From: Patescibacteria group bacterium
GTDB lineage: Bacteria; Patescibacteriota; Microgenomatia; UBA12405
Assembly (NCBI GenBank): GCA_013387215.1
Contig: WARW01000001.1
Location: 12,735-76,734, forward strand
Reading direction: 5' to 3'
DNA length: 64,000 bases
Positions 5,320 through 40,739 of this stretch are shown piece after piece. Under the pieces are notes generated by a model that was given only the letters and a program-made list of their open reading frames with translations, did not search any database and was not told the DNA's origin. The translations under genes were made by a program, and so were the position numbers. Numbering within the stretch: the stretch's first letter is position 1; every line of letters starts with the position of its first letter.

Positions 5320-5803
5320 CTTTTTTCAGCAATATTTTTTCAGAATCGTAAGCCAATTTTTGGTTGGCTTCATCAAACGTAAACCAATCTCTTTCCAACA
5401 CCAGTTCCTTGTCGTAATATTTCAAATTGCTTGGCTCCAAATATTCCATCAAAAAGAAAGTTACTTTTTTGACAATTTTTTTTCTCAATTCTTTATCCCA
5501 GATAATATAATTGTTTGATCCCAATTTAATTACCACTTTAGCTTTTACTCGGCCTTCTTCTTCCACTTCTCTCAAAGCGGCTTGTTTTAAAAATTCATTT
5601 TTTTGCAAATGGCCTTTGGGAAATTTGTACACCGACTTTAATTCTTTACCTGTCATTCGGCCAATATTCTCCGTCCGGTTGTTGGTTGAAGTTTTAATTA
5701 AAAGCCAATATACTTTTCCGTTCTCAATTTTATAGACCAGTCCACCCGCGGATCGTTCATCGAAGTTCACTTCGTCATTGGTTTTAATTATTTCGGGTTT
5801 CAT
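5285..5803 (-). CDS. NUDIX hydrolase
   Basis: Nudix box GHLQKNEFLKQAALREVEEEGRV matches GX5EX7REUXEEXGU. Confidence 0.7.
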   Translation of the reverse strand: MKPEIIKTNDEVNFDERSAGGLVYKIENGKVYWLLIKTSTNNRTENIGRMTGKELKSVYKFPKGHLQKNEFLKQAALREVEEEGRVKAKVVIKLGSNNYIIWDKELRKKIVKKVTFFLMEYLEPSNLKYYDKELVLERDWFTFDEANQKLAYDSEKILLKKAKNQLEALIKQ

Positions 5804-5844
5804 TTTTATAAATAGTTTCTGATTTTACCAGGTTTATTGCAATG

Positions 5845-5918
5845 TGTGTTCGAGAGGATTTGAACCTCCAATCACTCCCTTCGGAGGGGAGTACTCTATC
5901 CAGTTGAGCTACGAACAC
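5845..5918 (-). tRNA. tRNA-Arg (anticodon CCG)
   Basis: Reverse complement reads GTGTTCGTAGCTCAACTGGATAGAGTACTCCCCTCCGAAGGGAG...GGAGGTTCAAATCCTCTCGAACACA. Anticodon loop CTCCGAA. Confidence 0.8.
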
Positions 5919-5935
5919 AAATACTGTATTTTACC

Positions 5936-8536
5936 TTAATCCATCAGATTAACTTCCAGCTTGTTGCCTTTTTCATCTACCACCACTCCAGTCACATCAT
6001 CAGCATTTTCTTCTTTATCTAATAATATTAAGGCTAATTTATCTAGTATTTCTGTTTGGATTAACCTCTTAAGCGGTCTGACTCCAAAAATAGGATCATA
6101 AGCTTTCTTGGCTAAATATTTTTTAGCTTTTTCGCTCACTGTCATCACTACATTTTGATCTTTAAGTTGATTAATAATTCTTCCGAGCTGTATATCAACA
6201 ATCTTAGTTAATTCGTCTGGTGTCAATTTTTTAAATATTATGACTTGATCCAAACGGTTTAAAAATTCTGGTTTGAAACCGCGTCTTAAAATTTCCCAAA
6301 CTTCCAGCTCCAAAAGATCTTCTTTTTTCTTCGACACATTATCTTGAATTATTCCCGACGCAATATTGGAAGTCATAATAATAACCGTGTTGGTGAAATC
6401 AACAGTTCTACCCTTACCATCGGTTAATCTTCCTTCATCCAGTACTTGTAAAAACAAACTGAATATTTGTGGATTTGCTTTCTCGATTTCATCTAAAAGT
6501 ACCACTGTGTATGGTCTTCTCCTGACCGCCTCTGTTAATTGTCCGCCTTCTTCAAAACCGACATAACCTGGAGGCGCCCCAATTAATCTGGCGACCGTAT
6601 GAGGTTCGCTGTATTCACTCATATCGATTCTTACCAATGCTTTTTCATCATTGAATAATTGTTCTGCCAACGCTTTTGCTGTTTCGGTTTTACCAACTCC
6701 TGTGGGTCCTAAAAATAAGAATGTGGCAATTGGTCTGGTCTGTTCACCCAAATGTAATCGTGATCTTCTGACTGCATTTGCCACTGCCGAGATTGCCTCA
6801 TCTTGTCCTACCACTCTTAATTTTAAAATTGCTTCTAGTTTCTTTAATTTTTCTGATTCTGATTTCAACATTCTGTTGGCTGGAATTCCGGTCCATTTAG
6901 CGACTATTTTTGCAATATCGTCTACATCAACTTCTTGTTTAATTAACTTTTCTTCTATCGGAATTTCATTCCATTTCTTTTCTGCCTTTTCCAATTTTTT
7001 TTGATTTTCAGGAATTAATCCATATTTAATTTCTGCTGCCTTATCTAGTTCCAAATTTCTTTCGGCAACCCCTAAATCATATTTTAATTTATCTAAATTT
7101 TCTTTTAAGCTTTGAACCTCATTTAAAGTGGCTTTTTGTTGTTTCCATTTTAAGTTCATTCCTTGCATTTTTTCCCTATATTCGGCTAATTCTTTTCTGA
7201 CTTCATCCAATCTTTTCTCTGTGTTTGGATTATTTTCTTTGGATAATGCTTTTTCTTCTATTTCTAGCTGTCGGACTTTTCGGTTCAAGTTATCAATAAT
7301 TGCTGGTGCCGATTCCATTTCAATTCTTAAACCAGATGCTGCCTCATCAATTAAATCTATTGCCTTGTCTGGCAAAAATCTGTCCCTAATATATCGATCG
7401 GACAGTTTGGCTGCTGCCACCAAAGCCGCATCAGTTATTTTTATTCCATGATGAATTTCATATTTTTCTTTTAAACCTCTTAAAATTGAAATTGTGCTTT
7501 CTACATTTGGTTCATTCACCATCACCGGTTGAAATCTTCTTTCCAATGCTGCATCTCTTTCAATATATTTTCGATATTCATTTAAAGTAGTGGCTCCAAT
7601 TACTCTCAAAACTCCTCGGGCCAGTCCAGGTTTCAGCATATTTGAGGCATCGACTGCGCCCTCTGCTCCGCCAGCCCCAACGATTGTATGTAATTCATCA
7701 ATAAATAAAATTACCTGACCTTCGCTTTTAATTACTTCATCAATCACACTTTTCAATCTTTCTTCAAACTCTCCTCTAAATTTAGCACCAGCCAAAATTG
7801 TGGAAATTTCCAAAGTTAAAAGTTTTTTATTTTTTAAAGATTCAGGCACATCGCCGCTGACAATTCTTGAGGCCAGTCCTTCCACGATGGCAGTTTTACC
7901 AACTCCAGGATCTCCCACTAAAACCGGATTATTTTTGGTCCGGCGCGACAACACTTGCATCACCCTTCTGATTTCTTCTTCGCGGCCAATTACTGGATCT
8001 AATTTTCCTGATTTAGCCAAGCTTGTTAGATCGATTGTGTATTTTTGCAACGCTTTATACGTTGTTTCTTTTGTTTCTGTATCCACGGTTTTTCCTTGTC
8101 TTAAATCAATAATTGCTTCATTTATTTTATTATCATTTACTTCATTGTCTTCTAAAATTCGTCTGACTTCATAAGCACCCCGGTTGCTCACTGCTTTTAA
8201 AAGCATTTCTTGTGGCACAAAACTATCCCCAAATTTTCGGCTTTCATTAATAGCGGTTTGAAGGGTTTCTTGGAGTTTCCTGGAAATTTGAGGTTCTGGT
8301 GTTGGACCCTCAAAAACCGGCATTCTGTTTAAGGCATAGGCAATATCTTCTTTTAATTTATTAAAGCTCAAAGCTTCCTGTTTTAAAATTTCCCGGCTGA
8401 TTCCTTCGCCTTCCGATAATGCCCAAAGTAGGTGCAATTCATCTACTTCTGGGTTTCTTCTGGCAGCAGCTTCTGTAACTGCTTTTTGAAGAGTCTCAAG
8501 TGACAGTTGAGTGAATTGAGTCTGATCCATATTCAA
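5936..8536 (-). CDS. clpB: ATP-dependent chaperone ClpB (Clp N-domain, two AAA+ modules, middle coiled coil).
   Basis: Two Walker A motifs ([16 protein letters not shown]). Clp_N repeats. Long coiled-coil insert. 866 aa. Confidence 0.9.
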
Positions 8537-22380: not shown

Positions 22381-24714
22381 TCATGGGTGAATTGGAACTG
22401 TACTAGAACCATTATTTTCAGTTTTTAATGGTTCCTCTAAAATTTTGTAATGTTCAGGGAATGTTACTTCTATCATTTCAAGAAGATATTTTATAATTTT
22501 CTGAGATTCAGGTATTAAACAAGGGTCAAATCCTTTACCTGTTATATGAGATTGGTCATTTACAAATTTATAAATAGCAGTAAGTTTGTTTTCGTCATTA
22601 AATTTATCTTTTAATGTTTCAAGTTTTTTGTACATATTATCATTGTTTGGAACTCTAAACATTAAAAAAGTATCAAGTAGTTTTCTTGCTATATTTGGTA
22701 AGTTATAAACAGAGGCGATCGTCCCATCTGATTTAAAAGTGTAAAGAGTTTTAAACAAATAAGTATATTCTGTCTCATGATCCTTTAAATCCTTATCTAA
22801 AATTGAAATGTAAGCAACCCGTCCCAGAGTAGAATCAGAATTATTAACCATATAATAACTCTTTGACCCTTGAACATTTGAGTTTTTCAACCAGTTTAAT
22901 AACAATCTCAAAAAATCAAAATTATGAGTTAATAAAAATACTTGGTGTGCATCTTTTACTGCATTTTTAAGGAAAGAAAAAGCTTGAAACAAAGAATTGG
23001 AATCTAGACTGGAAATTGGATCATCTATAACCACAATTCCATTTGATACATCAAAACTTTGATCTTTTAAATGAATTATAAAATAAACAAAAGCTATAGC
23101 GGTTTTTTCACCTTCACTTAAATATTTTGCAATTTGTCCATTTCTTTTAATTAAATATCCATCGTCAATTTCTTTTTGAATTCCGTTTTCTATTATTTTT
23201 CTAGTGCTCGGTTCAAATATTAGCTCATTTCTACCTAAATATATTTCTAGAAATTTATTGATTTCGTTACAAGCCTTATAAGAAGATGATATTAGGTTTC
23301 TATTGGTATCAATTCTTTCTTTTAGCTTTAAAACACCTATGTTATTTGGAATATTTTCATCACCATTGTTTAATATTGTTATCTCTGCATAGTAATCATT
23401 TATTTTGGAAGATATCTTATTAATATCATTATAGATAGAACTTAAATAATGAGTTTCTAATAATTTCTGTGCAGATTCTTTATTTAGCTTAAAGTTTTTA
23501 GTTTTATCATTGTGTTTGTTTATCTCGTCGTTTATTTTTTTTATCGACTCTGTATATTCAACAGTATTAATATCCATTTCAAATTTAATTAATTCTGCAG
23601 TCTTAGTTTTTTTACTTTTTAAAATTTCAATAATTTTATCTAAGTTATCTAATAAATTTTGTTTTTCAGTTTCATATAATTTTACTGATGACTGATAAGA
23701 AACTTGTAGTTCATCATATAAATTAGCCTTATCAATAGCCCTGATTTGATTTAATGAGTACTGAATATTAAGGATACGTTCTATTAAACCGTCTATCTTA
23801 CTTTTAAGTTCTAAATCTGCCTCATTAAAATATTTTGACAATTCTTTTACTCGTTCTTCCAATAAAGGTTGAGAACAAAACTCACACACTTTTGAATGGT
23901 GAATTTTGTGTAGCTCTATTCCTTTTTCAACCCATACTGACAAATCATTATTGATTCTTAGTCTTTCGATAATGATAGTATCAATTTTTGTTAAACATAT
24001 TTTTTTTGCATCTTCAAATATTTCTTTTAAAACATTTGCTAGTGTGATAGGTTTATTTTCTAGGTCGATCCATTTTATTTCCTTTAATTCTTCTAGGCAA
24101 TTTTTTTCTAGTTGTTTTAAAGTTAACAAATGAATTTTCAACTCTTTTTCAGTTAAAATTTTTGGTTCTTTTATTAATTCAAAGGATTTTTCCGCATCAG
24201 GTTTTCTATAGTTTCTACTTAATAGTCCTCCAGTATTTATACTAATTAAAGACGCAATGTCAGTAAACATTTTTCCTTTTTGTTTTTCTAAATCCAATAT
24301 TTTAGTATTATCTTCATTAATCTTTGCAGATTTTTCATTTAGTAATTTTTCATCAATATCAATTTGTTCAGCAATTAATTTATTTTCTTCACCAAGTATA
24401 TATATTGATTTAGCCCTTCCTGTAAGAACTTGGATGTTATTAGTTATATAGTCTTGATTAAAAACTCTAACTAATTGAGGAAATTTAGAACCATTCTTAA
24501 AAGTACCAATATCTGTTTCAATCTCATATTCTAAGTTAGGAAATTTTTGAGAGTATCCATTTTCTAAAGACTCAAAAAGGTTGGTTAATGTAGTTTTTCC
24601 GCTGCCATTCCATCCATAAAATAAATTGTATTTACTAAATTCTGGTAATGTTGAATTAACCAGATAGTCAGAAAATATTCCTAAGCCTTTTATCTTTTTT
24701 ATTTTTTTAATCAC
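22381..24714 (-). CDS. RloC/PrrC-like AAA_13 family ATPase. ABC-like ATPase head with coiled-coil insertion carrying a CxxC zinc hook. Putative defence or anticodon-nuclease-like protein.
   Basis: N-terminal IKKIKGLGIFSDY...FYGWNGSGKTTL (Walker A). Coiled coil with HHSKVCEFCSQPL hook. C-terminal signature-like LSEGEKTAIAFVYF, Walker B VVIDDPISSLD, H-loop LLTHNFDF. Confidence 0.6.
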   Translation of the reverse strand: MIKKIKKIKGLGIFSDYLVNSTLPEFSKYNLFYGWNGSGKTTLTNLFESLENGYSQKFPNLEYEIETDIGTFKNGSKFPQLVRVFNQDYITNNIQVLTGRAKSIYILGEENKLIAEQIDIDEKLLNEKSAKINEDNTKILDLEKQKGKMFTDIASLISINTGGLLSRNYRKPDAEKSFELIKEPKILTEKELKIHLLTLKQLEKNCLEELKEIKWIDLENKPITLANVLKEIFEDAKKICLTKIDTIIIERLRINNDLSVWVEKGIELHKIHHSKVCEFCSQPLLEERVKELSKYFNEADLELKSKIDGLIERILNIQYSLNQIRAIDKANLYDELQVSYQSSVKLYETEKQNLLDNLDKIIEILKSKKTKTAELIKFEMDINTVEYTESIKKINDEINKHNDKTKNFKLNKESAQKLLETHYLSSIYNDINKISSKINDYYAEITILNNGDENIPNNIGVLKLKERIDTNRNLISSSYKACNEINKFLEIYLGRNELIFEPSTRKIIENGIQKEIDDGYLIKRNGQIAKYLSEGEKTAIAFVYFIIHLKDQSFDVSNGIVVIDDPISSLDSNSLFQAFSFLKNAVKDAHQVFLLTHNFDFLRLLLNWLKNSNVQGSKSYYMVNNSDSTLGRVAYISILDKDLKDHETEYTYLFKTLYTFKSDGTIASVYNLPNIARKLLDTFLMFRVPNNDNMYKKLETLKDKFNDENKLTAIYKFVNDQSHITGKGFDPCLIPESQKIIKYLLEMIEVTFPEHYKILEEPLKTENNGSSTVPIHP

Positions 24715-29041: not shown

Positions 29042-30853
29042 ATGTCAAGAAACATTGAGAGTCCAAGTTTCGTACAAATCAAAGAAGCTTTGGCTTGTCC
29101 GCATATTCAAAAAACCGCTCGCCCTATTGGTGTCGACTTGTTTTATTCGGATCTGGAAAGTGCTAAGGAAAGAAGACAGCTTTTGGAAAAAATGAGCCAT
29201 CTTTTTGATCAGATTCCAGACCTAAACATGGATGTCGATACCGCTTTAAAAAATAATTTAATTAGCTCTGAAAACTTATCTAATGTTTATCAGGATTTAT
29301 CTGATTTCATCAGCTCAGATTCCAATCATTCTCGTTTAGCTTTATATCTGCCTTTCCAAATTATTCCCAATTTAAATCCAGACAATTCAAAAAATATAAC
29401 CGAATCTCAGGTTAAATTTGCTAACGTCTATAAAAATGCTTGGATGCAATTGTTGTTTGAAAGTGATATTCGGGCGGATTTTTTAAACGGAGACACATTA
29501 GAACCAGGCCTAGGCGAACCAGCTCGAGTCAGAAAAGCAGCCCATTTAATACCGGAAATTTTAAAAAAGGGAATTATTGATAAAGAAGATATTGACTTAA
29601 TATTAGAAATAAATAAATCAGATGATGAATTATGCCATTCAATTAACGAAGGAGTAATTGCCTACGAGAAATTAAATAAATCAGAAAAATCTGAGGAAAC
29701 TTCAGAAATTTTTGATTTAGATAATTTAAAAAAAGAACTGGCTCTTATTGATAAAAATTACGGACCAAATTCAGAAAATATTTCCAAATTAAGTCTAAAG
29801 GAAAAATACGATTCGCCCAATCTGCTTGATTCAAAAATCAGCCAAGAAAGAGCTGCTTGGATAAGAAGAACTAAATATGGAGAAACTTTAAATAAATATG
29901 CCCAAAAAATTCATAATTTTAATACCATTGATTCTTTATTAGAAGCAGATGAACCAGTCTATAAAATACTTGGCTTAAAAGCGATTTTTAATCAAAATCA
30001 ACCGACTGATATCTTTGATAAATTAATTGAGGAACAGTGGTTGACTGGTAATAATCAAATCAAGGAAGCAATAATTACCGGCCTAAGTTATTGGCAAAAA
30101 AATAATCTAATTTCTTCACATTACCTAGATCGATTCGGAATTAAAATTCCTGATTTATCACAACCGTTTTCAGTTGATTTAGATAAATTAATTTTGTCCG
30201 ACCTTAAAAATATGACAGAGGCTGTAGAAGGAATTAAAAATGAATCAATTCTTTCTGAAAATATTTATCCAACCATATTAGTATTTGGATCAAGAGTCAA
30301 AGGATATTCTGGTCTTGATTCTGATTATGATATCGCTGTCTTTTTTAAACCAAACGCCTTAATTGATAACCGGAATTCAATTCTTCAATCAATCAAAGCG
30401 ATTCCTTCATTAAAAGAAGTAGGGAAGATATGTGAATTTTGGACAACCGAAAATGATGGAAAAATAGGTCTTAGACCAATCTCAGAAAAAGTTTGGGGCA
30501 TGATTGGACCGGAACAAATTCACTTTTTATTTGGAGGTGCTTGGATTGGTGATAAAACCGATATAAATAAAATACAGCAGGATCTTTTGGAAAAATATTG
30601 TGATTTATCAAGATTTGACCATCAAAAAGATTTGGTACGATCTCGCTTGCTGGGTAATTTAGAATACGATATTCTTCAATGCCGTCTTATGCATAAGGGG
30701 TATCGAAAATTTTATCCTGATAAAATTGATCCGAAAATTAAAAGTATAAACGCTATTGATGGAAATAGTGCCTTTTGGGATCCTGGGTTTAGACGAGTGG
30801 CAACGCAACTTTTTTTGAGTAGAGTATTTTTACCTGATTTATCGGGTAAATAA
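29042..30853 (+). CDS. Large protein with a C-terminal Pol-beta-superfamily nucleotidyltransferase domain. The N-terminal ~400 aa are unknown.
   Basis: GS-x9-DxD motif ILVFGSRVKGYSGLDSDYDIAVFF (MNT/KNTase-like). Convergent with the PurA-like operon, with a 15-nt overlap. Confidence 0.55.
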   Translation: MSRNIESPSFVQIKEALACPHIQKTARPIGVDLFYSDLESAKERRQLLEKMSHLFDQIPDLNMDVDTALKNNLISSENLSNVYQDLSDFISSDSNHSRLALYLPFQIIPNLNPDNSKNITESQVKFANVYKNAWMQLLFESDIRADFLNGDTLEPGLGEPARVRKAAHLIPEILKKGIIDKEDIDLILEINKSDDELCHSINEGVIAYEKLNKSEKSEETSEIFDLDNLKKELALIDKNYGPNSENISKLSLKEKYDSPNLLDSKISQERAAWIRRTKYGETLNKYAQKIHNFNTIDSLLEADEPVYKILGLKAIFNQNQPTDIFDKLIEEQWLTGNNQIKEAIITGLSYWQKNNLISSHYLDRFGIKIPDLSQPFSVDLDKLILSDLKNMTEAVEGIKNESILSENIYPTILVFGSRVKGYSGLDSDYDIAVFFKPNALIDNRNSILQSIKAIPSLKEVGKICEFWTTENDGKIGLRPISEKVWGMIGPEQIHFLFGGAWIGDKTDINKIQQDLLEKYCDLSRFDHQKDLVRSRLLGNLEYDILQCRLMHKGYRKFYPDKIDPKIKSINAIDGNSAFWDPGFRRVATQLFLSRVFLPDLSGK

Positions 30854-32290
30854 GTATTCGTATCCTGATCTTATTTTTCTATCTTTTGCTTTTGGTCCCC
30901 ATCCTTCAGCCACTACTGGAATTTGGATCTTTTCTTCAACATAATCCAAAAAAGTATCGACCATTGTTTTGTTATTTTCGGGTTTAAGGGTAGATAAAAT
31001 TGGCTGGCATTGATTAAGTAATTTAGTCAATTGCAGTTGGTGTTTATAATGAGCTTCGTCTTGAGTATTAGGATAAATTTTAATTCCAGTAATGATATCG
31101 TTTTCCATTTCAAAGTAGTCTTCCAAATTAGTATTTTCTCCATTAAATTTATAGCCCTCACAAATCTGCCACTCATTTTTTTGAGATAAAACATCAAGAT
31201 AACTGATCATTAGACCGTCAAAAGATTTCTTTCCGCCGCTAATTTCAACAGCATATTTCATGGCCACAATATCATAATTACCATTTCTAAATTCTCCCAG
31301 CCATTCAGTCCAATTATTGTGAGTTTCCTGAATTGAATCAGTCATTTCTCGATTAAAACTAACCAGTGGGCCGGCTCCATGGCGGGTCATATAGCATCGG
31401 CTAACACCAATTCGGACTATCTCCCCTGAATAATTTTGTTTTTGAAGAGTGCCAAGAATATCTTGAGAAGTTGGATCGATTTGAGTAGTGTGAGGAATAA
31501 AGCCGTACCATGGGTGTAAAAGTGCACCATGAGAAGTTTCGCAGACCACTAAACCTTCTTGTGACAGCATTTCATTTAAATAATTATCGTCAACAATTTT
31601 GAACAAATCGGCAGTGTATTTGAATGATTTGGCAGTTGATCCAACAAAACTTTGATCATAAAGTATTTCCAATTGTTCATATGCTTCTTCCGGCAATTGA
31701 TCTAATCCAAGAATTAGTTTTTGAGCTTGTTGAATTTTATTTTGCCGGATATTTTCTATTTTTTGGCACAAAGTTTCTTCATCATCGCTAAAATCGCCGG
31801 CTCTGATTGTTAGTTGTGGATCTTTTGAATCTTTTATGGCTTCGCCAACCCCCATACCAACTGTTCCTTTCTTGTCTTTACCTCGCATAATTTCGCGAAG
31901 TCGGCTTATAGCCCGGTGAAACGGAGTTATGGAAATACATTCTTTATCGATAGTTATTAAATCGAATGGATTTTTTACTCCCTTTTCTTCAACCTCAATA
32001 GCCTCATTAAAGAGATCAGTCGGGCAGATTACCATGTGTTTTAAGTGAGTTTTAGCGCCGTCAAAAGTACCAGCCCCAAAATGGCTAAACATTTGTTCTC
32101 GCCCATCTTCGGCTGTAATATGGTGTCCGGATTGGCAGCCTCCTGATCGCCAAACAGTATGAGCATTAAGCATTTTAGTAAAAGCTTCAACTGTGTTGCC
32201 TTTGGTTTCTTCGCCAATACCTAAACCAGTAACCACAATGACTTTATTTTTGGGCTTTTCAAAATTAATATTTGAAATTATTTCTTTCAT
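30839..32290 (-). CDS. Adenylosuccinate synthetase (PurA)-family protein, divergent paralog 1
   Basis: PurA-like P-loop GLGIGEETKGN (compare GDEGKGK), GGCQSGHH (compare GGHNAGHT), TVGMGVGEAI (compare TTGRGIGP), RHGAGPL (compare RVGAGPFP). The catalytic Asp is replaced by Glu in the P-loop. Confidence 0.65.
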   Translation of the reverse strand: MKEIISNINFEKPKNKVIVVTGLGIGEETKGNTVEAFTKMLNAHTVWRSGGCQSGHHITAEDGREQMFSHFGAGTFDGAKTHLKHMVICPTDLFNEAIEVEEKGVKNPFDLITIDKECISITPFHRAISRLREIMRGKDKKGTVGMGVGEAIKDSKDPQLTIRAGDFSDDEETLCQKIENIRQNKIQQAQKLILGLDQLPEEAYEQLEILYDQSFVGSTAKSFKYTADLFKIVDDNYLNEMLSQEGLVVCETSHGALLHPWYGFIPHTTQIDPTSQDILGTLQKQNYSGEIVRIGVSRCYMTRHGAGPLVSFNREMTDSIQETHNNWTEWLGEFRNGNYDIVAMKYAVEISGGKKSFDGLMISYLDVLSQKNEWQICEGYKFNGENTNLEDYFEMENDIITGIKIYPNTQDEAHYKHQLQLTKLLNQCQPILSTLKPENNKTMVDTFLDYVEEKIQIPVVAEGWGPKAKDRKIRSGYEYLFTR

Positions 32291-32291
32291 A

Positions 32292-32342
32292 AACCTTTCG
32301 TCCTTTTGGACTCATCAGTATCGATACGCATCGATAGAGGTT
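32292..32342 (-). ncRNA. Type III hammerhead ribozyme motif (copy A), immediately 5' of and overlapping the SD of the PurA-like gene
   Basis: The minus strand reads aaccUC | UAUCGAUgcguAUCGAUA CUGAUGA GUCC-AAAA-GGAC GAAA GGUU u AUG. The conserved CUGAUGA and GAAA cores are present. Stem I hairpin 7 bp, stem II 4 bp, stem III 4-5 bp. Cleavage site is UC. Confidence 0.6.
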
Positions 32343-32404
32343 GAATAGCTAAAAGCCAGTCTTTAAATTAATAAAGATAGCTTTCAGCTATTCTGTAAAG
32401 AGTG

Positions 32405-33556
32405 TTAGAACTTATTCCAATTGATTCCGCTTCCAGGCTGTTCATCCTTTATTGGTTGCTCTACAACAGTAGTTGCATCGTGCCCGATAGGCCAAATGTC
32501 GCGAAGATTGGCGAATTTGTCTCCAGGTTTGGGGATTTTATTATATCCGGGTAACTTCGCCTGGGCGCCAAAAAGCGGTTTTGCAACCTGCAGCCATCCC
32601 CATAGACGATTAACATCGCGTTGTGAAATATGATCATTGGAATTGCCAGCCAGCAAGAATTTGTTTAAACCGTCTTCGGTAGGTTGCAGAGTCTCTGTAA
32701 CATAAATTAGCCCTGCTTGAGCTTCGGCAAGTAGGTCAGGGTCAGGAATTGAAATAACTCTGTCTTCACCTAAATATTGCTGCCACCAGTAGATATTTGA
32801 ATTATTATGGCCAACATTAAGGTAAAACAAATGCCATTTTGATATCAGGCTTTCACAAACCTTTTTCAATGAAACCTTTTCGCTTTGCATGGTATGACCT
32901 AAATATCTTTCAACATCATGTTTGGTTACATACTCCCTGCAATCAGCATCAGCACCTAAGAAGAAATAACCTTTAAGACCGTAGTTTATAATGTCGACTT
33001 CTGTCTGATTATCGACATACCACAAACCAAGTTGATAATCTTCTGTCCAATCATCGCCATCTTTATCGGGAACCAATAACTCAACATGTTCAACGGCGCG
33101 ATTATCAGATTCAAATTCGGCCATTTGGAATGGAGGGTGGTCATCTTTTACATCCTGCAGAACGGCAACGGACAGATCTATTTGATATCTATCCTGTAAT
33201 TCTGACAGCATACAATAGACCTTCCCCATTGCCTTAAGAGCAAGTGCTACTTTTTCGCCCATTGAACCGGTTCCGTCTGTTCCTAAGATAGTCGGTAATT
33301 TAATACCTTTTGCCAATATATATATTTTTTTTCCAGCCTCATCCAACAGCACCATCGCGTTACGAGAAAGACGTTTAACACCAAAAATATTAACATTTTG
33401 ATGTAATTTGCCAGTTTTTTTGAAAACTTCATGACCTTTCTCATGAACAGTTTCGGTAAATCTCACCCCTTTCGTTGTTGCTCTTTCTTCCATTTTTCTA
33501 ACGGTTTCTACATGCTTCACTGCATTAAAAGTAGAGGTATCTTGCTTCCTTGCCAT
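32405..33556 (-). CDS. von Willebrand factor A (vWA) domain protein
   Basis: MIDAS motif ILGTDGTGSMG. Size and position are paralogous to the 38215-39762 vWA protein. Confidence 0.55.
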   Translation of the reverse strand: MARKQDTSTFNAVKHVETVRKMEERATTKGVRFTETVHEKGHEVFKKTGKLHQNVNIFGVKRLSRNAMVLLDEAGKKIYILAKGIKLPTILGTDGTGSMGEKVALALKAMGKVYCMLSELQDRYQIDLSVAVLQDVKDDHPPFQMAEFESDNRAVEHVELLVPDKDGDDWTEDYQLGLWYVDNQTEVDIINYGLKGYFFLGADADCREYVTKHDVERYLGHTMQSEKVSLKKVCESLISKWHLFYLNVGHNNSNIYWWQQYLGEDRVISIPDPDLLAEAQAGLIYVTETLQPTEDGLNKFLLAGNSNDHISQRDVNRLWGWLQVAKPLFGAQAKLPGYNKIPKPGDKFANLRDIWPIGHDATTVVEQPIKDEQPGSGINWNKF

Positions 33557-33587
33557 TTAAATCAACCCTTTCTTTTTTTAATTTTTT

Positions 33588-34553
33588 TTACCTTGGATAC
33601 GTCCGAAATTCATGAAATTGTCTTTTTAACCCTTTTCCATCCCAAGTCGGTTCTTTTGGCCAAATTTCATCAGATAGTTTGTAAAGATCATCAAACTCCT
33701 CCCCAGCAGCTTTAGCATCACCATCCATAATTCTTCGTAAGAAAGAAACATACTTATCGTAAGCATCTTTACTCATAATTTCCGAATCATAAGGCGGATT
33801 TGATTTTTCAGTGCCTCCGGCTGCTTCCCAGGCTATTTTTGCCGCTGCCACAACTTCTCGAATCTTATCGGCATAACTCGGATCTCCCTTAGTATTGGAA
33901 AAATCCAGTATAAATACTCCATGAAGTGCAGTTTCGACAAGTTCATTGTCGGCATTAACCAATCCAACCGTTAAATCAAAACTGTGGACAAAATACAGCA
34001 ACTTCAAAAGTTTTCCAAATATCCATTGGACACTTTTCAAATCAACCCTTTCCGTTGCTGTTATTACCGATAGTGGTGTTAATTGTTTATAAGAATTTAT
34101 ATTCTCGTGGTATCCCAAAAACAAAGCTGTTCTGTCTCCGGCGTCAATTTTTTCAATTAACTTCGGAAACATCGATCCGTAAAATGCTGGAGTTTCGTTT
34201 TTGCTTATCGCTTCCTGATCTAGTTCATGAGCAATTCGTTGAAGCTTTTTGAGCGTTAATGCTTCATTGTTAAGAACATTATTGCGCTCACTGCTGTTAA
34301 CGATTTTCATTAATCCGAATTGACTTGATGGTAATTTTGCTGCATAAACTCTAAATACGCTTGTTTGGGCTATTGGTAATGGATTTGGGTTATCTCCGGA
34401 TTTTAAACCGAAAATTTCATACTGGCCATTCAATCCATCGTAAAAACCCATGCTGATTAAATTAGATTCAGCTGGATTTTCACTTGGAACTAATAAGGCG
34501 ACATTTAACACTAAATCCGTTAGCCATCCTGTTGAAGAATCATTTTTTGGCAT
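33588..34553 (-). CDS. Protein-kinase-like protein (Hanks/APH-like fold) with the shared N-terminal WLTDLVL peptide
   Basis: HSFDL...N catalytic-loop-like segment and ILDFSN (DFG-like). N-terminal MPKNDSSTGWLTDLVLNVALLVPSE. Confidence 0.45.
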   Translation of the reverse strand: MPKNDSSTGWLTDLVLNVALLVPSENPAESNLISMGFYDGLNGQYEIFGLKSGDNPNPLPIAQTSVFRVYAAKLPSSQFGLMKIVNSSERNNVLNNEALTLKKLQRIAHELDQEAISKNETPAFYGSMFPKLIEKIDAGDRTALFLGYHENINSYKQLTPLSVITATERVDLKSVQWIFGKLLKLLYFVHSFDLTVGLVNADNELVETALHGVFILDFSNTKGDPSYADKIREVVAAAKIAWEAAGGTEKSNPPYDSEIMSKDAYDKYVSFLRRIMDGDAKAAGEEFDDLYKLSDEIWPKEPTWDGKGLKRQFHEFRTYPR

Positions 34554-34556
34554 TTT

Positions 34557-34754
34557 TCACACCCCTCTCATTAATTCATTCATAAAATATTTCTTAACGT
34601 TTTTTCGTTCTCTAAAGTATTCATGGATGTAGCTTCTTTCTTTAACTTTAAACTCCTTTCTCACCTGACTGATGTCTGACTCTTCAGAAACAGGTAATAA
34701 TGAAGCAAAACATAAAACTAATCCAGTCAGCCATTCCTCAGGTGTTTTTCTCAT
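34557..34754 (-). CDS. Small protein consisting of the shared N-terminal WLTGLVL peptide plus a basic tail
   Basis: MRKTPEEWLTGLVLCFASLLPVSEE matches the N-termini of the two kinase-like proteins. Confidence 0.4.
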   Translation of the reverse strand: MRKTPEEWLTGLVLCFASLLPVSEESDISQVRKEFKVKERSYIHEYFRERKNVKKYFMNELMRGV

Positions 34755-34851
34755 TCCGATTCACCCTTTCTATTACTAACACTTTATTGTTAAAGAACTT
34801 TTAATAAGATCATGACCGCTTTGACCAAGATCTTACCCAGATATCATCCCA

Positions 34852-34905
34852 AATTCCTTTCGTCCTTTTGGACTCATCAGTATCGATACACATCGACAGA
34901 GGATT
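34852..34905 (-). ncRNA. Type III hammerhead ribozyme motif (copy B)
   Basis: The minus strand reads aauccUC | UGUCGAUguguAUCGAUA CUGAUGA GUCC-AAAA-GGAC GAAA GGAAUU. 47/50 identity to copy A in the core. An a-to-g change in stem I makes a G-U wobble. Confidence 0.55.
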
Positions 34906-34975
34906 GGGGGAGTTTGTTTTTTTTATTGAGTATTGATACTCAAAACAAACTCCGCCCGGGACTATCATTTGATTT

Positions 34976-36866: not shown

Positions 36867-38213
36867 TTAAATATCAATCGAAATCTTTTGATCTCGATCA
36901 GGGCCAACTGAAATTAAACCGATAGGAACGCCTAATTGTCCCTCGATATACTCCAGTAAGCTTCTAGTTTTAGAAGGTAAGTCTAAATAATTTTTGATAT
37001 TTGAAATATCATCTTCCCATCCTGGAAGGGTAGTGTAGACAGGCTGGCAGTTCCAAAGCAATTTCGACATTACTTCATCCTGCTTTTGCAGTTTCACTCC
37101 TACAATCTGATTATTGGGCCCGAAATCAAAGTATTTGTTTAAGGTTTCTTCGCTCTCTTTGCCGATATATCGGTAAGAATTTGCAAATTTGATTTCTTTT
37201 AAACCAGACATTTTGTCCAAGCAGGACACTACCAGTTTGTCGATTCTTTTGTTCACTTGAAGCGAATATCTAAGCAGTACAAAATCTAGCCAGCCTTGTC
37301 TGACAAATCTTTGCCAAGGAGTATAAACGTTATGAGTTTCTTCCAGATTTAAGTTTTCATCTACTGTTGGAAATGGTCCTGCCCCATGTCGGACACTGTA
37401 TGGTCTTAATAATCCTAGTATAACCGCTTCTTTTTCTCCAAGAAGTTCCAATGCATTAGCTATGGATGTCCTAGTCTGGGTGATATTTGGTTTAAAACCA
37501 TAATCGCAATCCAAAATTGTGCCCTGAGCTGCCTCAAAAATATTATTTTGAGTTTGGATTATCTTTTGTATTTCTTCATCACTTAAAATACCCACCCTTT
37601 TGGTAAGTTCCAAATAAATTTTAGCCAATCCTTTTGGTGAGTACATTTCAAACTCTTCTAAAAGTATTTTTGTTTCTTCGTTACTGGCTAGCTGTTCTAT
37701 CTGGTCAAGTTTTAACATCTTTAGTGTTTTTAGCTTGTATTCCAGATCAGGTCTCAACAGATCTTTCGCTCTAATACTAAATGCAGGATTTGTCCTTTCA
37801 TCTATAACCGTTTCTCCAACACCTCTTCCGCAAGTTCCTTTTTTGGTTGTTCTTAGTATTTCTTTTATCTTTCCGCAGATTATTTGGTAGGGGGTAATTA
37901 CTAAAGAGTTTTCTGATATCAATAATTTTTCAAATGGATCAGAAATACCCTTAGTTTCTAGTTTTTCTCCCTCTACCAAAATTCCGATTGGATCAATCAA
38001 AGTAAACTTTGAAATTATAGTTTTTAAACCAACAAAGGTTCCGGATCCGAATTGGGAAAAGGTGTGGTGGATCCCACTCGACACCACATTGTGAGCACAC
38101 TGAGATCCACCGCAATATCTGACCACATTTCCTCCATATTTTGAGGCTAAAAAATCAACCATTGATCCTTTACATTCGTCACCTTTATCTAGGCCCACAG
38201 TTATCCAATCCAT
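36867..38213 (-). CDS. Adenylosuccinate synthetase (PurA)-family protein, paralog 2 (closer to canonical)
   Basis: GLDKGDECKGSMVD (P-loop GDEGKGK), CGGSQCAHNV (GGHNAGHT), TCGRGVGETV (TTGRGIGP), VRHGAGPFPTVDE (RVGAGPFPTE). Confidence 0.7.
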   Translation of the reverse strand: MDWITVGLDKGDECKGSMVDFLASKYGGNVVRYCGGSQCAHNVVSSGIHHTFSQFGSGTFVGLKTIISKFTLIDPIGILVEGEKLETKGISDPFEKLLISENSLVITPYQIICGKIKEILRTTKKGTCGRGVGETVIDERTNPAFSIRAKDLLRPDLEYKLKTLKMLKLDQIEQLASNEETKILLEEFEMYSPKGLAKIYLELTKRVGILSDEEIQKIIQTQNNIFEAAQGTILDCDYGFKPNITQTRTSIANALELLGEKEAVILGLLRPYSVRHGAGPFPTVDENLNLEETHNVYTPWQRFVRQGWLDFVLLRYSLQVNKRIDKLVVSCLDKMSGLKEIKFANSYRYIGKESEETLNKYFDFGPNNQIVGVKLQKQDEVMSKLLWNCQPVYTTLPGWEDDISNIKNYLDLPSKTRSLLEYIEGQLGVPIGLISVGPDRDQKISIDI

Positions 38214-38214
38214 C

Positions 38215-39762
38215 TTAAAGTCTCCTTGTCTTTGACCCTGTTGTCTTGTTTACAGGTTTATTGTCGGGCATTTTCATATCGACTGTAATTTCTGGCACCA
38301 AACTATTGTCCAGTGGCCTTAAAGCAGTTTCGATGTCATTTTGCCGTTCTATGGTTTGATCTCTATCACGCATATCCTTGATGTAGTCTGACAATTCTCG
38401 GCCTCCGTATCTTGCCAAAACTCCGATAATCAAATCAACAATTCCTTTTGGATCTTTCAATCTTAAAACATGATCCTCGGGAATTACCGATGACCATTGC
38501 GCCACGATCACGTCGTCTTGGTAGTTAGCATATTTATCCTTTGTTTCCGTTATTCTTTGTTCTGGATCATAATCAAACTCCAGAATTAGTATATTACTGT
38601 TTTCCCTTGTCTTATAAGCTGGCATTACCTTTTCAAAATGCTGTATTTCACCATTGATTTCAACTTCCACAGTAAACTGTGTTTCTATACTTTCTGATTG
38701 GTGAAAAGCATAGTTTTGAACATACACTTTATAGTGTCCTTTTCTGGCTCTGCCTTTTTCCCATCTGATATTTTCCACAGGTTTTGTTGTTTCCCCGTGC
38801 ACATTCATATCTACATCCAAAAAACCTCCACACGGAGCCTTTTTGTTCTCACTTGGATAGTAAATATGAAAACCAGATGGGGTAATCACATGTAAGTCCA
38901 AGTCATTGGTGTTGTGCCAAATCAGTGAAACCCTAATATCGACTCCCTCATACAAGCCCCCGGCTCTTTCGACTCTCTTTTTGATCTCATTATCAATATC
39001 AGTTTTTCTTTTTTCCCATGTTTTTTGCGGGAAAATAAAGAATACTTCATATTTATCCTGAAGATCAGCAAAAACTTTCTTTGAGTCTAGGTCTTCGGGA
39101 ATATCATCGCCGATTATTCTTTTGACTTCATCTTTCGATACTTTGTCATAAAATCCTTCATCGCCAATGAAAAAAAGATAACCTTTTTCTCCGCGGTCAT
39201 TAGCCTCCAACGTTGAGTGATAAGCATAAAAATAACCCATCAATTCATAGGATTCTTGCCCGGTGCCGCCGCCGCCTTTTTCTGGCCACATGCATGAAAG
39301 CACTTCATCAATTTTGTCGTCATAATAAAATTTGCCGACTTGAATTGGTGCTTTGTCAAACTTAGCGTCGCCCAAACCAGCAAAACTAATCACTGGATTA
39401 AGAACGTAGCCCTTCATATTTATTTGGCCAATGAGCATTGGGACTTTTTTGTCGATTATTTCAATATCCTTTCCGCGTGAATCGGTAAAATCTGAAACCA
39501 CTACGATTGGTGTTACTTTTGCTGCTATGTTACGGATAAAATCCAAACACTGTCGAAATGCATTTTTTGGATCAAGACTAGCATGAACCACTCTTTCTTT
39601 TGTAGCATTTTTACCCACCACATCATATTGATATTCTGTATTCACACTGCTTGTTCCCACGCTTCTTTCGTAAAAAACCATATCAGATGGTCCATCGCCG
39701 TCTCCGCCTCCCATTAAAAATGGTGCCAAAAAAGCACAACGCAGTATTCTTAAAAATTTCAT
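38215..39762 (-). CDS. vWA domain protein with additional C-terminal beta-rich domain (possibly TerD-like, acidic Ca-binding-like motif)
   Basis: MIDAS-variant VVVSDFTDS and LFFIGDEGFYD (vWA beta4 hhhhTDG motif). The C-terminal segment DLDLHVITP...IYYP...GGFLDVDMN...PVENIRW resembles the TerD pattern. Uncertain. Confidence 0.5.
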   Translation of the reverse strand: MKFLRILRCAFLAPFLMGGGDGDGPSDMVFYERSVGTSSVNTEYQYDVVGKNATKERVVHASLDPKNAFRQCLDFIRNIAAKVTPIVVVSDFTDSRGKDIEIIDKKVPMLIGQINMKGYVLNPVISFAGLGDAKFDKAPIQVGKFYYDDKIDEVLSCMWPEKGGGGTGQESYELMGYFYAYHSTLEANDRGEKGYLFFIGDEGFYDKVSKDEVKRIIGDDIPEDLDSKKVFADLQDKYEVFFIFPQKTWEKRKTDIDNEIKKRVERAGGLYEGVDIRVSLIWHNTNDLDLHVITPSGFHIYYPSENKKAPCGGFLDVDMNVHGETTKPVENIRWEKGRARKGHYKVYVQNYAFHQSESIETQFTVEVEINGEIQHFEKVMPAYKTRENSNILILEFDYDPEQRITETKDKYANYQDDVIVAQWSSVIPEDHVLRLKDPKGIVDLIIGVLARYGGRELSDYIKDMRDRDQTIERQNDIETALRPLDNSLVPEITVDMKMPDNKPVNKTTGSKTRRL

Positions 39763-39785
39763 TTTAAAAACCCCTTTCCTTATTC

Positions 39786-40739
39786 TTAAAATTCAAACAC
39801 TTGGAATCCGATATCTCCCCATATTTCTTTCCTCAATTCGTACAGTTTTTTTGCCATATCCCATGCATCCCTAGCCCTTTGTATTGGACTGGAGATTAAA
39901 AAGTTTTCTATAAATCTTTGGAATCGGGGGTCAACAGTATCAGGAAGACTATTATCCTCAAGATTGCCACCCAAAAGGTAAATCATACATTTACCAATGG
40001 AATACATATCTGAAGATTCTTTTGGTTCGTCTTTTTTCTGCACCTCCGGAGCGCTGTAATCATCATTTACTGCCCTAAAACCAGCCTTATTTATTGAAGC
40101 ATAACTCCAATCAATCAAACAGGCATTATGGTCATCTTTATGATTAGTCAGCAAATCCACAGGTTTTATGAGAATGTGTGCCGGTTCAATATTGCAATGA
40201 AATATTCCTTTACTATGGGCATATCCCACTGCTGCTAAAATTCGGCACAGCATCCAGGCGGCATGATAATCGGGAACTCCCGACACATACAATGGATGTT
40301 CTCTGATTTGGTTAAGGTTGAAACCCTCAAACTTCTGAAGAATTATCCCCACCGTCTTTTCTTTTGTTTTAAATCTATCCAGGAATTTTGGCAAATGAAC
40401 TTGGTTTTGGTTTTCTTCTGCAAATAATGCATTTAAGATTTTTATCTCATTATTTGCAAACTTATTGTCGATTTCTTCTTTGATTACTTTAACAATGATG
40501 TTTATGCTTTCGCTTTCATTGGCAAAATAACCCTCATAAATCATCGACAAGTCGCCCTCACCAATAACTTTGTTGACGTGGTATTCACGATTTTTAATCG
40601 TTATTACCCAGTCCAGTTTCTCAGATTCATTTGTTGCATTTGAAGCCCCTAAAACTACACCAGTCAACCAGCTTTGAGGATTTTTTTCATCCATTTTTAT
40701 CACCCTTTCTTTATTAATCAGTTTCGATTTTGATATCAA
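39786..40739 (-). CDS. Hanks-type protein-kinase-like protein, probable pseudokinase
   Basis: Gly-rich loop VIGEGDLSMIYEG, VAIK-like IIVKVIK, catalytic-loop HCNIEPAHILI (HRD Asp replaced by Asn), DFG-like IDWSYA, APE motif YSAPEV. The likely start is M at 40694, giving N-terminus MDEKNPQSWLTGVVLG. Confidence 0.55.
   Translation of the reverse strand: MISKSKLINKERVIKMDEKNPQSWLTGVVLGASNATNESEKLDWVITIKNREYHVNKVIGEGDLSMIYEGYFANESESINIIVKVIKEEIDNKFANNEIKILNALFAEENQNQVHLPKFLDRFKTKEKTVGIILQKFEGFNLNQIREHPLYVSGVPDYHAAWMLCRILAAVGYAHSKGIFHCNIEPAHILIKPVDLLTNHKDDHNACLIDWSYASINKAGFRAVNDDYSAPEVQKKDEPKESSDMYSIGKCMIYLLGGNLEDNSLPDTVDPRFQRFIENFLISSPIQRARDAWDMAKKLYELRKEIWGDIGFQVFEF

Follow-up and report, generated by a model that had tools for sequence, protein, structure and literature searches.

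Type III hammerhead ribozymes in the intergenic regions of bacteria and prophages were reported by Perreault et al. in 2011, and that report also describes clustered hammerheads flanking gene blocks, for which processing of long prophage transcripts was proposed (PMC3088659). This role was restated, still unproven, in a 2019 review, which describes the roles of bacterial hammerheads as largely elusive (PMC6765202). Here we describe HH1, a predicted type III hammerhead which abuts the start codon of a PurA-like gene on the minus strand of a Patescibacteria contig (WARW01000001.1, assembly GCA_013387215.1); the whole stretch that was analysed, 64,000 nt in length, is referred to as the window. 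HH1 probably acts within a long co-directional transcript and would constitutively split the mRNA between cistrons, a reading based on sequence comparison to which we assign a probability of about 0.72. As intergenic, clustered and start-codon-abutting hammerheads were already published in 2011 (PMC3088659), HH1 belongs to an already known kind of element.

With the described bacterial and prophage hammerheads (RF00008, clan CL00010) HH1 shares the core, the topology, the intergenic placement and the multi-copy flanking of gene blocks (PMC3088659). It differs from them in its host, which is a Patescibacteria chromosome and not a classical prophage, and in its score below the Rfam threshold. 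Furthermore, HH1 is preceded by a hairpin and occupies a fixed place in a module of kinase-like, 383-aa, PurA-like and nucleotidyltransferase genes, neither of which was found for the hammerheads of Perreault et al. in the passages of the paper that were searched (PMC3088659). The same source describes HHphage of the haloviruses HF1 and HF2, a hammerhead 13 nt from a start codon, with a transcript 5' end at most 3 nt from the cleavage site (PMC3088659). HHphage thus resembles HH1 in lying immediately upstream of a start codon, but it carries core insertions and belongs to an archaeal virus, whereas HH1 has a canonical core and a start codon 1 nt past stem III. Similarly, glmS cleaves itself in the leader of a bacterial mRNA and alters expression of the downstream gene; however, it needs GlcN6P as cofactor and destabilises its mRNA, whereas HH1 lacks a ligand-binding domain. 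The sTRSV(+) hammerhead, which processes rolling-circle replication intermediates, has type III topology and a core and stem II (CUGAUGAGUCC-loop-GGACGAAAC) nearly identical to those of HH1. In the RiboJ insulator a hammerhead is combined with an engineered downstream hairpin, resulting in a defined mRNA 5' end independent of the upstream sequence; the hairpin of HH1, in contrast, lies upstream of the ribozyme and would be retained on the 5' product. Finally, an inter-cistronic or 3' cleavage role has been proposed for bacterial twister ribozymes located in 3' untranslated regions or polycistronic mRNAs (PMC6765202). The proposed role is the same as that of HH1, whereas ribozyme class and hosts are different. 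For a bacterial twister, Felletti and co-workers reportedly proposed in 2017 that the structures left on the 3' end set mRNA stability.

As outlined in Table 1, the minus-strand RNA at HH1 consists, from 5' to 3', of AACCU, the cleavage-site C, the stem I arms UAUCGAU and AUCGAUA around a GCGU loop, the core CUGAUGA, the stem II arms GUCC and GGAC around AAAA, then GAAA and GGUU, followed by a single U and the AUG. The core agrees at every position with C3 U4 G5 A6 N7 G8 A9 and G12 A13 A14 (the latter being GAA at 32299-32297), and the same is found in HH2, a second copy in the window. Stem III is closed by the A15.1-U16.1 pair (A32296 with U32338), the H17 position is a C, and element order and fold give the type III topology with stems I and II capped by loops and stem III open to the flanking RNA. 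The core, the three stems, the A15.1-U16.1 pair and the UC cleavage site claimed by the original prediction, which was made by a model from the DNA letters, were all recovered at their positions. Its assignment to type III hammerheads is borne out by the canonical core, the three helices, covariation in relatives and a score of 72 bits against an out-of-sample model. The hammerhead three-way junction is the exact minimum free energy (MFE) fold of the isolated 59-nt segment, although with an energy z-score of only -1.6, and is also the MFE structure of the 117-nt intergenic region (z = -7.2). Judged from these features, HH1 is very likely a genuine type III hammerhead ribozyme, for which self-cleavage is predicted.

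Table 1. Positions in the window of the two hammerheads, their upstream hairpins and the neighbouring open reading frames (ORFs).
Feature	Position	Strand	Basis
HH1, complete type III hammerhead ribozyme	32292..32342	minus	sequence, MFE fold, RF00008, models R1 and R2
HH1 stem III, 5' strand	32342-32338	minus	sequence
HH1 C17	32337	minus	sequence
HH1 predicted scissile bond	C32337 / U32336	minus	sequence
HH1 stem I hairpin	32336-32319	minus	sequence
HH1 core CUGAUGA	32318-32312	minus	sequence
HH1 stem II hairpin	32311-32300	minus	sequence
HH1 GAAA	32299-32296	minus	sequence
HH1 stem III, 3' strand	32296-32292	minus	sequence
AUG of PurA-like ORF 1	32288..32290	minus	one nt past last stem III base; ORF list
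22-bp hairpin directly 5' of HH1 stem III	32343..32393	minus	dG -26.9 kcal/mol, z = -7.6
HH2, type III hammerhead	34855..34903	minus	RF00008, exact pattern match, alignment A1, models R1 and R2
HH2 stem III, UCCU/AGGA		minus	
HH2 C17	34899	minus	
HH2 predicted cleavage	between 34899 and 34898	minus	
HH2 stem I	34898-34881	minus	
HH2 core	34880-34874	minus	
HH2 stem II	34873-34862	minus	
HH2 GAAA	34861-34858	minus	
Hairpin directly 5' of HH2	34907..34956	minus	dG -19.7 kcal/mol, z = -4.6
Gene block between HH2 and HH1	32405..34754	minus	ORF list; no Pfam matches
65-aa ORF	34557..34754	minus	ORF list
Kinase-like 321-aa ORF	33588..34553	minus	ORF list
383-aa ORF ('vWA' in the original prediction, unconfirmed)	32405..33556	minus	ORF list
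PurA-like ORF 1, 483 aa	30839..32290	minus	Pfam Adenylsucc_synt 160.8 bits

Both copies were compared with the Rfam model RF00008 (Hammerhead_3), which had been proposed as a check of the prediction. HH1 was matched with 28.6 bits (E=4.6e-4 in a 501-nt search, E=0.059 over the whole window) and HH2 with 27.3 bits, in both cases as a local match to model positions 7-48 with stem III left out, and both scores stay below the gathering score of 48.5 bits. Because HH1 scores below this curated threshold, a scan at the gathering threshold returns tRNAs and nothing else from the window. The 10 related genome loci compared with the model likewise all stayed below the threshold; the low score reflects the curated model and its cutoff and not an absent structural feature, and the Rfam gathering threshold misses a whole subclass of HH1-like hammerheads. 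Model R1 gave 70.9 bits for HH1 and 67.3 bits for HH2, and model R2, which was built from 88 genome copies taken from other genomes only, gave 72.1 and 69.2 bits, respectively. No other ribozyme class was detected in the window at E<=1 in a permissive Rfam scan. A loose type III descriptor (stem I of at least 4 bp, stems II and III of at least 3 bp, CUGANGA, GAAA, U16.1 and H17) matched the real window twice, compared with one match in total over 300 dinucleotide-preserving shuffles. With these numbers at hand we considered whether HH1 is a chance resemblance or a decayed relic devoid of catalytic activity. The sub-threshold Rfam score and the low z-score of the isolated fold would fit such an origin, as would an altered core (U4C) in the related copy L164/L155, which indicates that some copies decay. 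Given the shuffling result, the canonical state of every core position and the covariation and orthologous conservation described below, we regard this explanation as extremely improbable.

The second hammerhead, HH2, had been overlooked in the original prediction and came to light both in the permissive Rfam scan and in a pattern search. It lies on the same strand about 2.56 kb upstream of HH1, both copies being part of a co-directional gene array (about 41939 to 30839, minus). HH1 and HH2 have the same core, stem II and loop II, and alignment A1 of the two regions revealed that identity is limited to the ribozyme block, with unrelated flanks. Within this block the copies differ by a compensatory change at stem III position 4 (A-U in HH1, U-A in HH2) and, at stem I position 1.2, by an A-U pair in HH1 versus a G-U pair in HH2. 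Full-sensitivity covariance-model searches yielded no third copy in the window, the next-best match having 12.6 bits.

Two minor features were observed around HH2. In the MFE fold of the HH2 region (34975-34840, minus) GAUAGUCCC, located 5' of the upstream hairpin, pairs with GGGAUGAUAUC, located 3' of the ribozyme; this pairing, which is conserved only in part in locus L037, would continue stem III around the hairpin, possibly keeping the cleavage products joined. Furthermore, a four-codon mini-ORF follows HH2 after 10-11 nt, both in the window (34842-34828, minus; AUGAUAUCUGGGUAA) and in L037 (about 7617-7631; AUGAAUCUGCGAUAA), with AGGA 7 nt before its AUG, which could be chance between close relatives.

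The distribution of the element was analysed with the exact 23-mer CTGATGAGTCCAAAAGGACGAAA, which comprises core and stem II. It is present in 36 IMG/VR viral contigs, where its chance expectation is far below one by our own arithmetic (4^23 ~7e13), and the same architecture was found in 33 of them. The viral copies possess a stem I of 7 bp (8 bp in one case), which in most cases is closed by GNGU, a loop of 4 nt; stem III usually measures 4-7 bp, and the cleavage triplet is usually GUC. In alignment A2 of 31 distinct sequences, 98% of the cells are paired, compared with 31-47% in slid controls in which the 3' partners were shifted by 1-3 columns. Stem I is 100% paired with double changes in 6 of its 7 pairs, and stem III is 93.5% paired with double changes in 4 of 5 pairs. 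Since the search pattern fixed stem II, its covariation cannot be judged from A2; outside the pattern-fixed set, stem II variants were observed as GUCU/AGAC in L038 and as a longer stem in L165. The A15.1-U16.1 pair is invariant in the 31, 88 and 15 aligned relatives. In GTDB representative genomes the 23-mer occurs in at least 119 stretches, and by record title 96 of these (81%) belong to Patescibacteria lineages, among them Saccharibacteria, Paceibacteria, Woesebacteria, Shapirobacteria, Nomurabacteria and Kaiserbacteria, 11 belong to other named lineages and 12 lack a lineage name. The remark that hammerheads in bacterial operons are known but rare does not hold up against these counts for a single 23-mer. 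Loop I is mostly GNGU-like among 161 sites (GUGU in 71, GAGU in 16 and GCGU in 5), loop II (AAAA) being fixed by the search pattern.

The window is part of a bacterial chromosome, encoding ClpB, GroEL, enolase, iPGM, a MacB transporter and a PBP. Proteins under the names Shapirobacteria, Woesebacteria or Microgenomates share 80-87% identity with this GroEL, and the host is a Microgenomates-group (Shapirobacteria-like) Patescibacteria genome. The genes around HH1 form a recurring module that consists of a kinase-like protein of about 320 aa, a protein of about 380 aa, a PurA-like protein and a Pol-beta-type nucleotidyltransferase of about 580 aa (L037-L043, L163-L166). The PurA-like label of the original prediction stood, as Pfam Adenylsucc_synt matched two proteins of the window with 160.8 and 248.6 bits; both are far under the NCBIfam purA equivalog cutoffs. 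The label vWA for the upstream 383-aa ORF was not confirmed by Pfam and PDB sequence searches, which gave no matches. This ORF is a paralogue of a 515-aa ORF at 38215..39762 (27% identity, E = 5e-12), with a stretch DxTxS, resembling a metal-ion-dependent adhesion site (MIDAS), common to both. No PADLOC, PHROG or NCBIfam assignment was obtained for the four-gene module; on the cassette, PADLOC returned only generic kinase matches and PHROGs one family without assigned function, which is matched by the 383-aa ORF.

Seven distinct loci have a hammerhead immediately ahead of the PurA-like gene, namely L037, L038, L040, L042/L043, L163, L164 and L166; L039 duplicates L038, L041 duplicates L040, and L155 is the same site as L164. 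With the PurA-like protein of the window, those encoded at these loci share 54-85% identity; no hammerhead precedes the PurA-like gene in L165, whose product is 42% identical. Over 15 module-associated copies 95% of the cells are paired, and both partners have changed in 8 of 16 pairs, among them a stem II pair in L038; one copy differs solely at the tolerant core position 7. The fixed position together with the compensatory changes points to long-term selection for structure. The HH2-type copy always follows a pair of genes for about 375 and about 100 aa, and its downstream neighbour varies: in the window, L037 and L164 a kinase-like gene comes next, in L038, L165 and L166 a gene of convergent orientation. 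In one Shapirobacteria metagenome-assembled genome (MAG) the HH2-type copy (L164:3685-3739(+), identical to L155:4714-4768(+)) has the core CCGAUGA, in which U4 is replaced by C. As U4 is normally invariant, this copy may be impaired or inactive.

The same data bear on the question of whether hairpin and hammerhead form a selfish or mobile module, spreading in genomes of the Candidate Phyla Radiation (CPR) and in phages without benefit to the flanking genes. Such spreading would account for the fact that distant lineages and viral contigs share the identical 23 nt of core and stem II, and for genomes with several copies, such as the Saccharibacteria MAG with four stretches (L080, L088, L092 and L103) or the three copies in L082. 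It would also fit the subset of Saccharibacteria copies in which a conserved stem-loop of about 90 nt plus hammerhead follows unrelated coding sequences, as well as the resolvase and relaxase-like genes near the L037 copy. However, the position before the PurA-like gene is kept at 54-85% protein identity and with compensatory changes, which implies long vertical retention under structural selection. Moreover, flanks and hairpins of different copies are unrelated in sequence, and neither terminal repeats nor an associated transposase were seen. Spreading of this kind is therefore an unlikely explanation of HH1.

In the Saccharibacteria subset just mentioned, the sequence-conserved stem-loop of about 90 nt (GGCAAGUGGAUAUGGGUU ... 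AACCCUAUGUCUGCUUGUC) lies directly 5' of the same hammerhead (L074:7417-7582(-), L111:5210-5375(+), L135:7268-7433(-), L156:1730-1895(-), L161:495-660(-) and others). No Rfam family covers it, and together with the hammerhead it may represent a distinct composite RNA motif or mobile unit. The sequence TGTCTGCTTGTC upstream of Saccharibacteria copies was also considered as the 3' end of a known RNA; it has no Rfam match and turned out to be the 3' arm of this stem-loop.

Hairpins directly upstream of the ribozyme (Table 1) were found in every orthologous copy, although the hairpin sequences are mutually unrelated, and the viral copies mostly possess a short GC-rich one. For 157 unique sites the 45 nt upstream fold with a mean of -10.9 kcal/mol, compared with -6.9 kcal/mol for random windows of the same loci (Mann-Whitney p about 1e-14), and 52% of the sites reach -10 kcal/mol or lower, compared with 23% of the random windows. 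In 78 of 97 hairpin-bearing cases the hairpin ends 0-2 nt before stem III. Intrinsic terminators were considered as an explanation of these hairpins and ruled out, since no U-tract follows them, which is not compatible with canonical intrinsic terminators, and no terminator-like site was called there. The gene context was determined for 161 sites with a crude ORF caller, according to which 109 sites are clearly intergenic. At 72 of these 109 a co-directional gene ends at most 300 nt upstream, with a median of 71 nt between stop codon and ribozyme; a co-directional gene lies downstream at 57, and 19 are located between convergent genes. Of the neighbours of the ribozyme, a co-directional gene whose end lies about 70 nt upstream is the most consistent.

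Taken at face value, these observations suggest the following course of events. The three-way junction would fold during transcription and cut after C32337. On the upstream side, the fragment with the kinase-like and 383-aa genes would then end with the 22-bp hairpin, the 6 nt AACCUC and, by analogy with established hammerhead chemistry, a 2',3'-cyclic phosphate. The downstream PurA-like mRNA would start with a 5'-OH right on the stem I hairpin, its AUG being 47 nt from the new 5' end. HH2 would cut likewise about 2.56 kb upstream, so that both ribozymes would divide the operon into separate pieces, and adjacent cistrons would probably become independent in mRNA stability and translation. Hammerhead cleavage generally produces 2',3'-cyclic phosphate and 5'-OH ends; 3' hairpins are a known barrier to 3'-exonucleases, and 5'-OH ends are poor substrates for 5'-end-dependent decay. 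The 3' hairpin would thus block 3'-exonucleases, and a 5'-OH on a structured end would evade 5'-end-dependent decay. Self-cleavage itself and its effect on stability or expression are what we infer from motif, fold and conservation. The retention of the same junction, the hairpin of variable sequence and the link of HH2 to the 3' end of a gene pair argue for transcript-end formation and not for specific control of the downstream gene.

Several points weigh against this processing role. The upstream hairpin is present at only about half of all sites, and 61 of the 161 sites lie inside predicted ORFs of at least 80 aa, which are possibly spurious given the crude ORF caller. Neither HH1 nor HH2 reaches the RF00008 gathering score, and the short stem III (5 bp in HH1 and 3-5 bp in orthologues) could make cleavage slower or weaker. 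A tertiary contact between loops I and II, which like a pseudoknot helps type III hammerheads to cleave fast at physiological Mg2+, is only implied by the conservation of the loops, and the loops of L166 differ from those of the other copies. As the viral and genomic sets were collected by exact identity to core and stem II of the window, they say nothing independent about those 23 nt. Likewise, the genome-derived alignment A3 (88 copies, the basis of R2) was pre-filtered for pairing, so that only the diversity of its pair types is informative. Finally, the effect on mRNA stability is deduced.

According to a further reading, which could coexist with the processing role, GAAAGG of the stem III 3' strand is the Shine-Dalgarno (SD) motif of the PurA-like gene, masked by AACCU until cleavage frees the 5-bp helix and turns on translation. 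The part of the original prediction on which it builds, that the hammerhead adjoins the start codon, was found to be correct, since stem III ends only 1 nt before the AUG and the adjacency recurs at orthologous loci. AGG and AUG are 3-7 nt apart in the window and in 4 of the 7 other junction loci (L037, L164, L166 and L163), which leaves no space for another SD. Furthermore, GAAAGGG or AAGGAG is the SD of other cassette genes, and cleavage would leave 9 nt instead of 4 nt single-stranded ahead of the AUG. The SD role assigned to GAAAGG was, however, not established, as the cassette SDs lie 7-9 nt from the start compared with 3 nt at HH1 and the spacing varies between loci: in L038, L040 and L043 the AGG is 16-22 nt from the AUG with A/U only in between. 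The same CCUC...GAAAGG stem III also occurs in HH2-type copies that are distant from start codons or face convergent genes, so that the AGG looks like a lineage trait, and most genes of the window lack an SD (61 ORF starts). Hammerheads without an aptamer cleave constitutively, and HH1, having none, offers no obvious switch. We consider such a translation switch rather doubtful; a modest effect on the accessibility of the PurA-like start is plausible, but it is not demonstrated and is not the conserved feature. The MKEI start of the PurA-like protein is conserved in L037, L164/L155 and L038.

At most housekeeping genes among the 61 ORF starts the leader is A/U-rich and lacks an SD motif, and several genes of the 27-42 kb region carry GAAAGGG or AAGGAG 7-9 nt upstream. 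This SD usage hints at a different origin or a different expression mode of the region.

As in clustered prophage-type hammerheads, two ribozymes on the coding strand flank a short gene block (34754..32405, minus). Hammerheads of that type are also located in prophages or close to integrase genes; in the window, a serine recombinase gene lies 27 kb off (3403-5319), and the PHROG and PADLOC matches of the cassette genes were not informative; megablast of the 30-36 kb region against phage records gave no match. In L037, resolvase and relaxase-like genes lie beside the module. The arrangement in the window allows for a different outcome, in which HH2 and HH1 release the segment of about 2.56 kb (34898..32337) and an RtcB-type ligase circularises this mRNA. 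Both ribozymes are on the same strand and bracket the gene block, and 5'-OH and 2',3'-cyclic phosphate ends, as expected from established hammerhead chemistry, are substrates of RtcB-type ligases. Perreault et al. raised this possibility themselves, but they sought spliced or circular products and found none (PMC3088659). As, moreover, the paired layout is not conserved, with the second ribozyme located elsewhere in L038, L165 and L166, excision and circularisation are very improbable.

Returning to transcript processing, the locus provides a clean comparative case, as the same ribozyme is retained at one gene junction across the related loci examined (PurA-like proteins 54-85% identical). The hairpin of HH1 is conserved in structure and variable in sequence, and HH2 is linked to the 3' end of another gene pair irrespective of its downstream neighbour. 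The proposed transcript-end formation is directly testable. Hairpin plus type III hammerhead might even be a widespread RNA 'punctuation' of Patescibacteria and their phages that defines mRNA 3' ends and splits operons, a tentative extension that we would not yet bet on. If true, organisms with very small genomes would have in this ribozyme an alternative to intrinsic termination or to processing by protein RNases, and the insertion before the PurA-like gene of the uncharacterised four-gene module would be one instance of it. The concentration of this subclass in Patescibacteria genomes (a rough estimate from the at least 119 stretches), its invisibility at the Rfam gathering threshold and the quantified hairpin-plus-hammerhead architecture may be new. 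In the literature searched, which does not cover most subscription journals, no work linking hammerhead ribozymes to Patescibacteria or Saccharibacteria was found.

Apart from the ribozymes, the window contains two paralogous cassettes on the minus strand (30839-34754 and 36867-40739), each with a kinase-like protein, a DxTxS protein of about 380-515 aa and a divergent PurA-like protein. The first is followed by the convergent Pol-beta-type nucleotidyltransferase gene, and hammerheads accompany only the type of PurA-like ORF 1. The 65-aa ORF at the start of the gene block carries the same WLTGLVL-type N-terminal motif as both kinase-like ORFs (33588-34553 and 39786-40739) and looks like a duplicated or split N-terminal segment. 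Among the viral records, the contig L012 (IMGVR_UViG_2615840519_000001) combines the same 23-nt core with a hammerhead junction that is atypical, and its size of only 377 nt suggests a viroid-like or satellite element. Finally, a 777-aa AAA_13 protein (22381-24714, minus) matches the PADLOC candidate system PDC-S06 from end to end (E = 1e-233), and the large serine recombinase gene (3403-5319, plus) lies beside tRNA genes at 5146-5918; both proteins point to defence or mobile-island content in the vicinity of the hammerheads.

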